Origin: a virus
DNA length: 64,000 nt
Strand: one strand, 5' to 3'
IMG/VR virus record: IMGVR_UViG_3300013093_000001
Coordinates: 49,906-113,905 of that record
Shown: positions 12,120 through 45,923 of the stretch, piece after piece
How the letters are laid out: every line of letters starts with the position of its first letter
How positions within the stretch are numbered: the stretch's first letter is position 1
Made by a program: the position numbers and the translations under genes
Notes under the pieces: generated by a model
The model's input: only the letters and a program-made list of their open reading frames with translations
Told to the model about the DNA's origin: nothing
Databases searched by the model: none

Positions 12120-12200
12120 AGTTTTTTCCTCCTCCTAACTGGTCTGGCTCATGCCAGACTCGTACCCGGTACAGGTTCGACCCTGTACCGGGCGCTACCG

Positions 12201-12835: not shown

Positions 12836-13366
12836 TCACGCCGCAAATGCGTCGTACCACACCTTCCGCTTGTCACCACAGCAAGGGCCATAAAACCACC
12901 CACGCCTATTAACTCTAAGCCGGTGCGCTGTCACGTTACCGTGACAGTAGAAGCAATGCGGGACCAGCTTACCGTCAGCTATCGTAAACTCTAGCTGCTG
13001 CCTCGGCTTATTGTTCCAGCCAACAAAGAACCTAAAAATTCTCAGGTGACTGGTATGACGCATCAAATGCAATGACCTTGCTAGCCTCGCTAACCGCAGC
13101 AGGGCTAAACCACCACCTGCCACGGGCAGTAACGCTGCCACAATGACACAAGCATCAAACACGTTCCAAAAAGACCGGAAGAAAAGCCTGGTAAACGCGA
13201 CACGAAGAGCCAGTTCACACGCAAAGAACAGCAAAACAGCGTTGTCCAGCCGCTCAAGTAATTCAGCGTTCGTGTCATCTACAAGGCTCCACGCCACCAG
13301 ACCAAGGTTGGTTAGAATTGCGACCATCACTACCCGGTCTAGCGGGGAAGACCTGTTGTGCGACAT
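12836..13366 (-). CDS. ion-transport-family voltage-sensor domain (S1-S4) without pore
   Basis: FACELALR (S2), FFRSFWNVFDACVI (S3), LLRLARLARSLHL (S4 RxxRxxR). Confidence 0.8.
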   Translation of the reverse strand: MSHNRSSPLDRVVMVAILTNLGLVAWSLVDDTNAELLERLDNAVLLFFACELALRVAFTRLFFRSFWNVFDACVIVAALLPVAGGGLALLRLARLARSLHLMRHTSHLRIFRFFVGWNNKPRQQLEFTIADGKLVPHCFYCHGNVTAHRLRVNRRGWFYGPCCGDKRKVWYDAFAA

Positions 13367-13422
13367 TTCTCATAAACCTCCTCCTAACATCCCCGACCCT
13401 GTGTCGGGGAAATCTGTGTGGG

Positions 13423-13539
13423 GAGGCGGCGGCGCAGGTACTGCGCCCGAGCCATGTAACCGGGCAAGGCAATCCTTGCTTCCATTGCCACCAAAAATGA
13501 ATGAAAACGGTGGGATGGTGAGTTTAACGCCGCCGCCTC
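13423..13539. ncRNA. structured RNA motif, copy A (CAGGTAC...TGAGTTTAA core)
   Basis: 12-bp closing stem GAGGCGGCGGCG/CGCCGCCGCCTC, internal hairpins. Confidence 0.65.
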
Positions 13540-13572
13540 AAGCCTCAAAAAGTTTGTGTGGAAAGGTGGTGG

Positions 13573-13693
13573 GGGGGCGGCGGCGCAGGTACTACACGCC
13601 CCGTAGTAAAAGGGCGCTTATTGGTAGTCCTTACTTTCCAATTTCCCACCAGCAAGGAACGAGAAATTGGTTGAGCTTAACGCCGCCGCCTCC
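13573..13693. ncRNA. structured RNA motif, copy B
   Basis: same closing stem and core, different internal stems. Confidence 0.65.
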
Positions 13694-13696
13694 AGC

Positions 13697-13939
13697 CTAT
13701 GCTGACCGCCGTGAAGCGGCCATCGTTCGTACCTTGCTGACCACCCAGCGGGTGAATTTTACAAGATAACGAACTGCTGTGACCAAGAACCACGCGAGGC
13801 AAGCGAAAATCAGCAGTTCAGACAACTTGCGATTCTTTCGCATAACGCTCAGTATCACTTCTCCAGCGATTAGCTGGACCGCGTTACTGCTCAGGTGCTT
13901 CGTCAGTTCTTCAAACTGGTTTGGTCGTTCAAGCAACAC
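13697..13939 (-). CDS. small membrane protein
   Basis: one TM helix; start after repeat SD. Confidence 0.6.
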   Translation of the reverse strand: MLLERPNQFEELTKHLSSNAVQLIAGEVILSVMRKNRKLSELLIFACLAWFLVTAVRYLVKFTRWVVSKVRTMAASRRSA

Positions 13940-14012: not shown

Positions 14013-14378
14013 TTACTTGCGGTGACCGTGACCGGCGATGTTGTAATGACCGATATCACCACTTGATGTACCGGGTTGGTCGCTGCGGAACACGGAGGGA
14101 CATAAATTCGCCACCGCAATCAACACCGCCTCATCAGCGCGAACCCGCGTCAAATCACTGTTCAGCCACAGGTCATGTGCAATCTTATCGGCAGACGCGC
14201 CAGCGCCGATCTTACTGCAAATCATGTAACCCAATTGAAGCTGGCCGACAGAACCGCCATCGTTAATAAATCCAGCTTGGGACATGGCGCTTAAATAACT
14301 ACCATCATCCGCGTTCGCGATACCCTGCTGGCTTAACGTGAGCGCCAGAACAGCAGACACCGCTGCCTTTAAGACCAT
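14013..14378 (-). CDS. secreted DUF732-family protein
   Basis: signal peptide, DGSYLSAM..GYMIC..AVANLCP. Confidence 0.8.
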   Translation of the reverse strand: MVLKAAVSAVLALTLSQQGIANADDGSYLSAMSQAGFINDGGSVGQLQLGYMICSKIGAGASADKIAHDLWLNSDLTRVRADEAVLIAVANLCPSVFRSDQPGTSSGDIGHYNIAGHGHRK

Positions 14379-18476: not shown

Positions 18477-18725
18477 TCAGTCCAGGTAACTCGCCACCAC
18501 GTCTTCGAATTCAGCTTCGCAGCAGTCACTCACGTCTTCGTAGTACGTTTCGAAGTCAATGATCGGACTCCAGCTAATTCCTGGGCGTGGACGTTCATGC
18601 TCTAGCGCAATCACGTCACATTCGGTGTTGCACTCTCTGCAAACCTGCGTCAGCGGTGGATTTAAGCGCCTTCGCAGCGCTTCCGCTTCCTGCATACGCA
18701 TCAAAAAGTCTTTCATGCGTGACAT
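18477..18725 (-). CDS. hypothetical protein
   Basis: CREC..SDCCEA. Confidence 0.7.
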   Translation of the reverse strand: MSRMKDFLMRMQEAEALRRRLNPPLTQVCRECNTECDVIALEHERPRPGISWSPIIDFETYYEDVSDCCEAEFEDVVASYLD

Positions 18726-18803
18726 TTTTCCTCCTCCAAGGTGGGCATGGCTATTTGCCACGCCTCGTGCCCCGGCCAGGTTCGACCCTGGCCGGGGCTA
18801 GGT

Positions 18804-18990
18804 GCGACGCAGGTACAGTACGCCAGAGGATAGCTGGCGGTCACTCGGGCCGCATCGCAACATGGCTATGCGCGACCTGAGTGGACTGTCCTTGCATTCC
18901 CGCTCCAAAGGGAGCAATCTTACCGCCGAGAAATTGGGCACTCGGCCTCTGCGGCAAGCAAAAACCTTCGGGGGGTGAGTTTAACGTCGC
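18804..18990. ncRNA. structured RNA motif, copy C, occupying a whole inter-repeat slot
   Basis: GCGACG CAGGTAC ... TGAGTTTAA CGTCGC; no credible ORF; upstream repeat has a degraded SD. Confidence 0.65.
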
Positions 18991-19059
18991 TTCCTCTTTT
19001 GTGGTCGGCGTTCTTGCCGACCTCGTGTCCCAGGCAGGTTCGACCCTACCTGGGACTGC

Positions 19060-20425: not shown

Positions 20426-20745
20426 ACCCAACATCGCTGTTGGGGGTGGGGCGGTAGGGGTTCCCTACCCACCCCAGTTTGGAGGTTAGAGGAAATCACT
20501 ATTCATTAGACCTGTCGGTGCCACATGCGACCAGCTTCGCGCTGGCCGGGTTTGCACCCTAGCGCCTTGTGTTCACTAGCGGTGCCTCTACGTGCGCGAC
20601 CGCTGCTTCACTTTTGCCACCATCGTCCAAGTGCGCGACGGCGGCCACAAAGCACGCAGGCGCAAGGCTGCTCAGCCAGGTTGCGTGGACACCACAGATA
20701 TAGGTGTCCCGTAAAACCCGACCGGCAACTTTGCGCCTAAAACAA
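20426..20745 (-). ncRNA. ~320-nt structured ncRNA, copy 1
   Basis: homologous to 25445-25789 with compensatory changes; G.U pairs form on minus strand. Confidence 0.7.
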
Positions 20746-20967
20746 GTATACCCAGGGGCCTGAGTGTTGCCTACCCCTAAGCACGACTAATTCTTTCTAA
20801 CCCAAACCTGCTGGCGGCTGCCGGAAGGCTTTACCTTCCCCAGCCAGCCTCGTACCCGGTGTGGCTTCGACACCATACCGGGCCTCCTTACTTGTGCGTC
20901 CAGTCCCGGTAAAGCACCGCGAACAGGGTGCAAGCCATAACAATCATGGCCTCAACAGCGGGTGACA

Positions 20968-25444: not shown

Positions 25445-25789
25445 ACCCAACATCGCTGTTGGGGCGGGGGTGGGCGGGGGCTCCCCACCCACCCCCTGTT
25501 TGGAGGTTAGAGGAAATCACTATGTATCAAACCTGTCGGTGCTACATGCGACCGGCTCTTGCCAGTCGGGTTTGCGCCCTAGCTCGTCGTGTCCACTAGC
25601 AAGGCCTCTAACCGCGCACCTGCTGCTTCACTTTTGCCGACATCGCCCAAGTGCGCGACGGCGGCCACAACGAACAACGCAAAGAAGCCGGTCAAGGTAG
25701 CACCTACAGGGATGTACCCCTGTAGGTTGCGGACCCCTTAGATAAGGGTGTCCCTAAAACCCCGACCGGCAACTTTGCGCCTAAAACAA
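25445..25789 (-). ncRNA. ~345-nt structured ncRNA, copy 2, at 5' end of array
   Basis: homologous to 20426-20745. Confidence 0.7.
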
Positions 25790-25932
25790 ACGTACCAACG
25801 GGCAGGAGCGACCACAACCCCCAATCTTTTCTGGTCACTCATTCTTTGGCGCGGGGTCGGCGCTGGCAGCGGCTGGTTGAGCGGCAATTCTTTCCGCTAC
25901 CCAGGATGCTGGTTTCTTTCTCCACCAAGATT

Positions 25933-44064: not shown

Positions 44065-44307
44065 GTGTTGTTCAAACTGATACCAGTCGGTGTTGTGAAC
44101 GCTTTGGAGAATTTCGTCAACAGTGTCATAACGGTAATTGTTGACTCTGTTGAGGACCGGATGCGGATGGTGATGCTGGAGTTCACCGTCGATGACCCTA
44201 ATGCTGGTGGACCCGTTATATGTAGTAAATGCGCCACTAATACCGAGTCGGGTATATGCCCTGACTGTCAGCCTATGGCGCACTCTCGACTCCCTAACCA
44301 GGCATGA
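44065..44307 (+). CDS. hypothetical Zn-finger protein
   Basis: AGGAGG SD; CSKC..CPDC. Confidence 0.6.
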   Translation: MLFKLIPVGVVNALENFVNSVITVIVDSVEDRMRMVMLEFTVDDPNAGGPVICSKCATNTESGICPDCQPMAHSRLPNQA

Positions 44308-45923
44308 CTGCCGCGTTTGTTGACGAGGTCATCCCCGCGCAGGGGAGTACCACGCCACGCATTTACACCAAGCCCCTGGATGTCAACTGCACTGGTCAGG
44401 TTGATGACGAGGAGTGCATTTGCGGGTGTGGACTCAACCCTGACACGTCGTGGGGTTTCGACTGCATCGACTTCCTCCTCAATGTGTGTCATTGGCAGCT
44501 TATGCCCTGGCAGGAGTGGTTGTATGTGCACGCTTTGGAGAAGCAGACAGACGGTACGGGTTTCCGCTTCCAAATCCTTGTCATCCTGGTGGCGCGTCAG
44601 AATGGTAAGTCGCGGTGGCTTAAGGGGCTGGGTTTGTGGCGGCTTTTCCTGTCCCGCTACGGGCGGGTTGACGCTCATTGTCCTGGCGCTCGACTCGCTG
44701 TCATCGCTGCTCAGAACCTTGACTATGCGGAGAATATGCTCAAGGAGGTTGTTGACGAAATCCGTGACAACCCGCTGCTGTGCCGTGAGCTGATTAACCA
44801 CCGGGTCACCAATGGTAAACACAGGGCTATCCTCACTAACCGCCGTTACTGGCGTGCCGCCACCGCGTCCCGTAAAGGCGCTCGTTCGTTGTCGGTAGAC
44901 ATAGCCATGTTGGATGAGTTGCGTGAGCATACGACGTGGGATGCGTGGAATGCTATTGTCCCGACGACGACGGTACGCCGATACAGCCAGGTGGTGTGTA
45001 CCAGCAACGCGGGAGACAGCCGCAGTGAGGTGTTGAGAGCGGCCAGGGATGGCGCTATGCGCCGCGTGTTGACGGGCGAAACGGAGAACACCAGGATCGG
45101 GTTGTTTGAGTGGAGTGTTCCTATGGAGGAAGACCCTAAAGACCCGGCGTTTTGGCACATGGCTAACCCGTCTATGGGTTTACTGAATGATTTTTCGCTG
45201 GATGATTTGCGTGGCTATTTGGAGGCAATGGAGTATAGGAACTTGGCTGGCTTTCAAACTGAACACCTGTGTCAGTGGGTTGACTCCCTGCAACCTGGCA
45301 TTTTGCCAGCTGAGCATTGGGCTGAAACTATTGACCCCACCAGTCGCAGAGATGAGTCGGCACCTGTTTTCGCGGCATTGGACGTTAACTATGATAGGAC
45401 GAGAAGCTATGTCTGCATCGCAGGCCGTCGCGCTGACGGTAACTTGCACATTGAAATTGCCGTCGCTGCCAGCGGAACTGACTGGGTTGTTGAGTACCTT
45501 GCGGAACGAAAGAAAAAGTTCAAAGCCGTCGCTGTCCAAAAGACCGGAGCGCCGGTCAGCGGTATGATTGACGACATTAAACGCGCTGGTGTCAAGGTTG
45601 TTGAGTGGGGTCCGAGCAACGAAATTGCTGGGGCCTGCGCCATGCTGTATGACCAGATCACTGAACACCGGATTTTCCACCGGCCAGCCGGAGCCCTGGA
45701 CCGAGCAGCTGCTAGCGGCGTGGCGAGGAATGTCAGTGAGGGTTGGGTGTTTGACCGCCGTAACTCCCCCGTCGACGTGTCGCCTTTAATTGCGTGCGCC
45801 GCTGCGGCATGGTTGGAGCATAAAAGGCCGGGAACGCCTACAGTTCATGAGTGGCCTGATGAAGATGTCATTAGGCAGTGGGAAGAAGAAGGCCGAGGCA
45901 TGGAGGCGCAATGGAAAACGTGA
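44304..45923 (+). CDS. terL: terminase large subunit
   Basis: LMPWQ, VARQNGKS (Walker A), MLDELRE (Walker B), SNAG, ANPSMG. Confidence 0.95.
   Translation: MTAAFVDEVIPAQGSTTPRIYTKPLDVNCTGQVDDEECICGCGLNPDTSWGFDCIDFLLNVCHWQLMPWQEWLYVHALEKQTDGTGFRFQILVILVARQNGKSRWLKGLGLWRLFLSRYGRVDAHCPGARLAVIAAQNLDYAENMLKEVVDEIRDNPLLCRELINHRVTNGKHRAILTNRRYWRAATASRKGARSLSVDIAMLDELREHTTWDAWNAIVPTTTVRRYSQVVCTSNAGDSRSEVLRAARDGAMRRVLTGETENTRIGLFEWSVPMEEDPKDPAFWHMANPSMGLLNDFSLDDLRGYLEAMEYRNLAGFQTEHLCQWVDSLQPGILPAEHWAETIDPTSRRDESAPVFAALDVNYDRTRSYVCIAGRRADGNLHIEIAVAASGTDWVVEYLAERKKKFKAVAVQKTGAPVSGMIDDIKRAGVKVVEWGPSNEIAGACAMLYDQITEHRIFHRPAGALDRAAASGVARNVSEGWVFDRRNSPVDVSPLIACAAAAWLEHKRPGTPTVHEWPDEDVIRQWEEEGRGMEAQWKT

Follow-up and report, generated by a model that had tools for sequence, protein, structure and literature searches.

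Which RNA stands in front of a voltage-sensor gene in an uncultured lake phage, at a place where nearly all its neighbors carry a double-hairpin element, and what might it do there? The gene lies in a 64-kb window, the right-hand part of an IMG/VR phage record that is complete at 113,905 bp and bears direct terminal repeats. The stretch with the RNA is also contained in lake-water metagenomes, and no RNA data set appears among the public runs listed with it. The large terminase (44304-45923, plus strand) shares 54-57% identity with those of the Mycobacterium phages Nadezda, Typha and Bipper, and the gene at 14013-14378, near the RNA, encodes the actinobacterial domain DUF732, which together suggest an actinobacterial host for this lake-water phage.

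The gene array of this phage is unusual in that a structured RNA element is found at nearly every cistron boundary and in that an RNA replaces the gene in some slots. In the ordinary element, a hairpin of 12 bp with a loop of the GUCRAA type is followed by the linker UACGAG, then by a small hairpin and a strong ribosome-binding site; this element separates nearly every small gene of the array. An original prediction, made from the sequence, held that in front of the ion-transport gene the large hairpin of this element is replaced by two adjacent units with the same closing stem and core, and that these are riboswitch- or ribozyme-like. Here we ask whether the units form a structured RNA, on which strand, how widely the RNA is distributed and which function accounts best for it.

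Anatomy of the junction RNA

The two adjacent units, A and B, were found on the minus strand as predicted, with a shared closing stem and core and unrelated arms, and a third, expanded copy, C, lies elsewhere in the same array (Table 1). Read 5' to 3', each unit runs from a GC-rich closing stem (P1) through UUAARCUCA, the P2 arm, GYAAGGA, the P3 arm and UACCUG back to the closing stem. The closing stem is identical in A and B (GGCGGCGGCG / CGCCGCCGCC) and amounts to ten G-C pairs in A. The junction blocks read UUAAGCUCA(A), AAAGUAAGGA and UACCUG in A and UUAAACUCA, AAGCAAGGA and UACCUG in B, and the sequences of P2 and P3 are unrelated between the two. Unit C has the same junction blocks, a closing stem of other sequence with six pairs, and arms that are each about 40 nt longer. 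Across A, B and C some 22 junction nucleotides are fixed, the arms being free in both sequence and length.

The alignment of the copies also points to how the junction may be built. P1 probably closes with a U.G pair in every copy, formed by the first U after P1 and the G that ends UACCUG, and P3 appears to follow directly, its first pairs being those of the invariant AGGA with U(A)CCU, from which one A bulges out. P1 and P3 would then abut without a linker and stack as one helix of about 20 bp, and P2 would branch off this stacked helix between two conserved single strands. Since the closing U.G pair and the AGGA/U(A)CCU pairs are invariant, covariation neither favors nor opposes them. Two letters vary within the junction blocks, and they co-vary: unit A has G together with U, whereas B, C and a strain variant of B have A together with C. 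As wobble pairs, G.U and A.C are isosteric, and their exchange hints at a short RCU/NGY helix at the base of P2; this co-variation represents one evolutionary event and is therefore a lead only.

Table 1. Features of the junction-RNA loci and their surroundings, and strain-variant changes in unit B (positions in the 64-kb window).
Feature	Position	Strand	Basis or detail
Unit A, three-way-junction RNA	13574-13695	minus	fold, model R1
Unit A P1	13690-13681 with 13585-13576	minus	closing U13680.G13586; outer GG/CC extension
Unit A J12	13679-13671	minus	
Unit A P2	13670-13638	minus	
Unit A J23	13637-13632	minus	
Unit A P3	13631-13587	minus	
Spacer A-B, C-rich, G-poor, ~30 nt	13543-13573	minus	sequence
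Unit B, three-way-junction RNA	13423-13542	minus	fold, model R1
Unit B P1, 12 bp	13539-13528 with 13434-13423	minus	closing U13527.G13435
Unit B J12	13526-13519	minus	
Unit B P2	13518-13482	minus	
Unit B J23	13481-13477	minus	
Unit B P3	13476-13436	minus	
Unit C, expanded junction copy	18799-18999	minus	sequence, fold, model R1
Unit C P1	18990-18985 with 18809-18804	minus	closing U18984.G18810
Unit C J12	18983-18976	minus	
Unit C P2	18975-18899	minus	
Unit C J23	18898-18893	minus	
Unit C P3	18892-18811	minus	
Upstream ORF, 80 aa	13697-13939	minus	stop 13697-13699; no Pfam family
Small hairpin and ribosome-binding site	13377-13409	minus	retained half of the ordinary element; hairpin 13409-13391, site GGAGGAGG 13384-13377
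Voltage-sensor gene, 176 aa	12836-13366	minus	Pfam PF00520, E 4.9e-13, profile positions 3-118 of 241
Ordinary double-hairpin intergenic element, ~40 copies	3800-25500 (e.g. 12126-12193, 18723-18802)	minus	
Variant change U>C	13493	minus	G13508.U13493 becomes G-C
Variant change U>C	13472	minus	P3 pair U13472.G13441 becomes C-G, the state of A and C
Variant change G>A	13482	minus	outermost P2 pair lost; restores the AA found there in A and C
Variant change A>G	13480	minus	sole J23 position already differing among A, B and C
Variant change U>G	13526	minus	second letter of the first junction block

Fold, covariation and strand

The three-block pattern of the junction occurs three times in the 113,905-bp genome, always on the minus strand, and a backwards control pattern does not occur at all. 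The minimum-energy folds of the units are three-way junctions (-58 kcal/mol for A), with z of -4.7 for A, -4.8 for B and -3.0 for C. The isolated arms fold too, and the fold of A is retained when the whole leader is folded. A covariance model (R1) was built from the three copies with a hand-set structure, a check that the original prediction had proposed, and it recovers exactly A (131 bits), B (126 bits) and C (94 bits), whether the window or the whole genome is searched. In the fitted alignment, 95.2% of the pair cells hold standard pairs, compared with 28-56% in controls with slid partners. Both sides differ between copies in five pairs, of which three lie in P3 and one each in P1 and P2, a number reached by one of 500 shuffles; resting on three sequences, this covariation is modest in number but consistent. 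In the closing stem of C the pairing is kept through a change from G-C to A-U.

The wobble pairs had been thought to give mixed evidence on the strand, a view that the folding energies do not bear out. The minus-strand folds contain five to nine G.U pairs per unit, and the helices come to -59.9 kcal/mol on the minus strand versus -48.1 on the plus strand for A, -58.0 versus -50.4 for B and -80.2 versus -50.4 for C. A different fold of similar energy is possible for the plus strand of C, but it lacks the shared junction. On the plus strand these helices lose 8-30 kcal/mol of stability, and the junction architecture is therefore that of the minus strand, the one in mRNA sense.

A strain variant of the region is present on contigs of a different study, dated 2020, from other lake metagenomes. 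Over 13296-13724 it differs by six substitutions and one deletion, all within 13472-13559. Unit A is identical, the spacer has a substitution at 13559 and a deleted base at 13547, and unit B has five changes, two of which convert G.U to G-C (Table 1). Of the four changes listed for P2 of unit C, three (18914 and insertions at 18915 and 18959) lie in internal loops of the predicted fold, and the one at 18941 affects a G.U pair in the distal portion of the arm. The variant C has another sequence in the distal portion of P3, with CAGGTA (= UACCUG) retained. This pattern of change is what a selected fold predicts. On the basis of the covariation, the strain variation and the strand asymmetry, it is well supported that the junction RNA is a structured RNA under selection with a conserved core.

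Genomic setting

All genes neighboring A, B and C are on the minus strand, and we propose that the three units are transcribed within leftward early polycistronic mRNAs. The extended P1 of unit A starts 3-4 nt past the stop of the 80-aa ORF, and the ordinary large hairpin likewise lies directly past a stop codon, for example the one at 12836. Between the stop at 13697-13699 and the small hairpin with its ribosome-binding site the large hairpin is absent, so its replacement in front of the ion-transport gene was correctly read. The 176-aa product of that gene corresponds to the voltage-sensor part of Ion_trans only and has no pore. When the leader is folded in full, the structure of minimum energy pairs the 3' strand of P1 of unit B (CCGCCUCC, 13421-13434) with the complementary ribosome-binding site GGAGGAGG (13377-13384).

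Unit C is placed in another way. It has its own slot between two complete ordinary elements, no ORF begins at the ribosome-binding site of that slot, and the next gene encodes an 82-aa Cys-rich protein unrelated to the voltage-sensor gene. The genes that flank A/B and those that flank C are not paralogous and have no shared function, and none is metabolic. As C fills a whole slot and is then followed by an ordinary element, the idea of a substitute for the large hairpin fits A and B only. Coding or readthrough use of the units was also considered and rejected, as the copies share neither a start codon nor a frame.

Two further features of the array were observed. The stretches at 20442-20780 and 25463-25824 are diverged copies of a sequence of about 330 nt, with 77-83% identity in blocks; these copies make up the repeat families D11, D13 and D15 of the same array, have no match in Rfam and may be a second RNA-only cargo. 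In addition, metagenome contigs from several runs join or break exactly at intergenic repeats (16860, 17181, 17589, 17936, 18766, 18799 and 19374), and the contigs joined there skip or reorder cassettes. Such reordering could reflect shuffling between strains or assembly chimeras at the repeats.

Distribution

In IMG/VR, 80 capsid-related loci were found. Within the 30 longest capsid-related contigs, which include a 113,757-bp relative with 81% capsid identity, a search with the pattern at two mismatches gave control-level matches only and R1 gave nothing, nor did R1 find the motif in two more pattern-matched phage contigs (32 contigs in all). The exact three-block pattern, with short or long gaps, has no match in viral contigs, and a relaxed pattern has five, none of which is scored by R1. 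Species-representative genomes yielded one match (8 bits) and metagenome contigs two (14 bits at most), all without pairing. No nucleotide match to the region was found in the phage collection, and no description of the motif was found in the literature searched.

The ordinary element has a similar distribution. Its degenerate pattern has 25 matches in this genome versus zero in four complete or nearly complete genomes of related phages, and single chance matches only in other viral contigs. In the related phages examined, both the ordinary element and the junction RNA were looked for and not found. From these searches, the ordinary double-hairpin element appears private to the phage examined, and the junction RNA, with three copies in the genome, appears restricted to one uncultured lake phage lineage.

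The voltage-sensor protein itself is more widespread. Homologues are encoded in four related phages (33-49% identity), the junction motif is absent near each of them, and in the closest relative the homologue overlaps its upstream gene, an arrangement of translational coupling. No close relatives of the protein were found in viral contigs, and the protein database holds one 99% strain copy and three distant ones. The homologues in four relatives without the motif indicate that the gene is older than the RNA motif before it. Units A, B and C are best explained as paralogous copies of a structured RNA module specific to one phage lineage.

Comparison with RNA families

No family of Rfam 15 has a gathering-level match in the 64-kb window. 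At E <= 10 around both loci, the matches are to unrelated families at 13-20 bits, where gathering thresholds are 40-150 bits. The families covered include twister-sister, pistol, hatchet and HDV-like ribozymes, the glycine, glnA, THF, Na+ and Li+ riboswitches, 5S rRNA and YrlA. The junction RNA matches no described family and is new.

Several specific identities were rejected in turn. ARAGORN finds no tRNA or tmRNA in the window, and with this negative result and P3 loops that are not conserved, a tRNA-like cloverleaf was set aside. A retron is excluded by the lack of a reverse transcriptase, the complete phage genome having no RVT_1 match. In integron attC sites the inverse core sites RYYYAAC and GTTRRRY are paired and flank a variable stem; the junction RNA does contain GTTAARC, but it lies in single-stranded sequence and no inverse core site matches it on that strand. 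Readings of the junction as a K-turn, loop-E or T-loop fail on sequences that misfit in some copies, and a 5S rRNA-like RNA suits the size and shape but has no model match.

Possible functions of the junction RNA

Our tentative preference, held at clearly less than even confidence, is that the junction RNA folds constitutively and serves the early polycistronic transcript as a module for recognition or processing. With a P1 of 10-12 G-C pairs in A and B, the module should always be folded. The fixed junction would then be a specific recognition site for a trans-acting factor, possibly a host or phage RNA-binding protein or a ribonuclease, and this factor may process or stabilize the transcript or set translation at the cistron boundary. 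The tandem A/B before the voltage-sensor gene would hold the place that the large hairpin has at about 40 other boundaries, and a position shared with that hairpin suggests a specialized version of the same punctuation function. That it is a module for recognition or processing is our guess from the start of unit A directly past the stop codon and from the small hairpin and ribosome-binding site being kept. No RNase III or RNase E/G was found in the phage genome, which, as noted, has no reverse transcriptase either, and no partner protein or nuclease was identified in it; a search for a T7-type polymerase had no match in the phage or in the control genomes and is therefore uninformative. Protein sites usually need fewer than about 22 fixed junction nucleotides, and so many invariant positions are also in keeping with a core for catalysis or ligand binding.

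Such a core, either of a new class of self-cleaving ribozyme or of an aptamer for a ligand outside the known models, could cut or gate the early polycistronic transcripts, a possibility that we consider real but doubtful. A new class of small self-cleaving ribozyme taken by itself, with the junction as the candidate catalytic core that cuts the polycistronic transcript at or near the junction, is unlikely, although it suits the architecture and the multi-copy intercistronic setting equally well as the recognition module does. The three-way junction with its invariant nucleotides, the variable arms that accept 40-nt insertions, the several copies in one phage with a tandem pair at intercistronic sites, and the very stable flanking helices, which suit a constitutively active fold, are all in keeping with a ribozyme, and hammerhead and twister ribozymes are common in phages and often multi-copy. 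However, no Rfam ribozyme model matches even at E <= 10, there is no hammerhead core, junction position 13526 differs between strains, and new ribozyme classes are rare. Of the ribozyme-like character originally predicted, the architecture and genomic pattern fit, but no known ribozyme core or Rfam model does. Still less probable is a tandem riboswitch in which the junction binds an ion or metabolite and controls translation of the voltage-sensor gene. The A/B pair does lie in a 5' leader, tandem aptamers are known, and the pairing of the 3' strand of P1 in B with the ribosome-binding site would have the layout of an ON-switch. Against this, P1 forms ahead of transcription of the ribosome-binding site and should need no ligand, and the 12 G-C pairs of P1 in B compete with the alternative pairing; a full ordinary element stands between C and its next gene; the voltage-sensor homologues of four relatives lack the motif, one of them being translationally coupled upstream; and no known riboswitch model matches. 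A classical riboswitch is therefore unlikely, because P1 is too stable, the genes of A/B and C are unrelated, and C is followed by an ordinary element in a slot of its own. For the same reasons the riboswitch half of the original prediction is weakened, and what stands of it is a structured RNA with a conserved core.

Two other accounts do not place the function in the transcript that carries the RNA. The units may encode a stable trans-acting non-coding RNA, a cargo of the cassette array that would act on a host factor, for example a defense nuclease or an RNA-binding protein, in the manner of a decoy or sponge. The place of C in a gene slot between complete elements, with no ORF at the ribosome-binding site of the slot, favors such a cargo, as do the further ORF-less RNA-like repeats in array slots (D11, D13, D15) and the very stable closing helix, which suits a long-lived RNA. 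A and B, however, are embedded in a leader without a slot of their own, and we consider this account rather unlikely, slightly behind the ribozyme and ahead of the riboswitch. The least probable account, and a quite improbable one, is a DNA-level element without any role as RNA, whose inverted repeats would work at the level of single-stranded or cruciform DNA, for example as a signal for recombination or replication or as a miniature insertion of the selfish kind. In its favor, the two strands of each closing stem form a perfect inverted repeat, GTTAARC conforms to the consensus of integron core sites (GTTRRRY), and the metagenome contigs that join array repeats in different orders make recombination at the repeats possible. 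However, the G.U pairs of the minus strand would be A.C mismatches in plus-strand DNA, the ends have no target-site duplication, and GTTAARC is single-stranded, with no inverse counterpart. Moreover, the closing stem of C has another sequence with the pairing kept, which indicates that the structure is conserved rather than a terminal repeat sequence.

Small junction RNAs with a fixed core and free arms have repeatedly proved to be ribozymes, aptamers or specific protein sites. If the junction described here proves catalytic or ligand-binding, it would represent a new class of functional RNA. As a recognition site, the reading that we tentatively favor, it would offer a handle on the punctuation and control of an early transcript of about 22 kb.

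Relation to known systems

Like units A, B and C, the hammerhead ribozyme has three helices around a three-way junction, conserved nucleotides that all lie in the junction strands, and arms that vary and tolerate insertions; its third helix likewise begins with an A-U pair, and its third-to-first strand has 0-1 nt. The junction strands differ, UUAARCUCA standing against CUGANGA and AANGYA against GAA, and there is no Rfam match. The hammerhead cleavage site needs a non-G, whereas A, B and C have a G before P1. With junction strands UUAARCUCA, AANGYA and G in place of the core CUGANGA/GAAA/non-G, the units were rejected as hammerhead ribozymes. Tandem aptamers, namely the glycine riboswitch and the glutamine glnA RNA of cyanobacteria and cyanophages, resemble A/B in having two adjacent three-way-junction domains in a 5' leader, and they provide a phage precedent. 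Unlike them, A, B and C match no model, have a closing helix that is far too stable, lack conserved distal loops or a pseudoknot, and include a third junction copy, C, that is not linked to a related gene.

A possible parallel is offered by the exoribonuclease-resistant RNAs (xrRNAs) of flaviviruses, compact three-way junctions with fixed junction nucleotides that are typically duplicated in tandem, block a processive nuclease and define RNA ends. They belong to eukaryotic viruses, act against Xrn1, need a ring-forming pseudoknot and lie in the 3' UTR. No pseudoknot is evident in A, B or C. As to the ordinary double-hairpin element, its nearest described analogue is the start-associated and extended start-associated sequences of Cluster K mycobacteriophages (PMC3203893). 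There, too, a conserved element recurs directly in front of many genes of an actinobacteriophage, but it consists of short motifs and inverted repeats without a branched fold, unlike the junction RNA.
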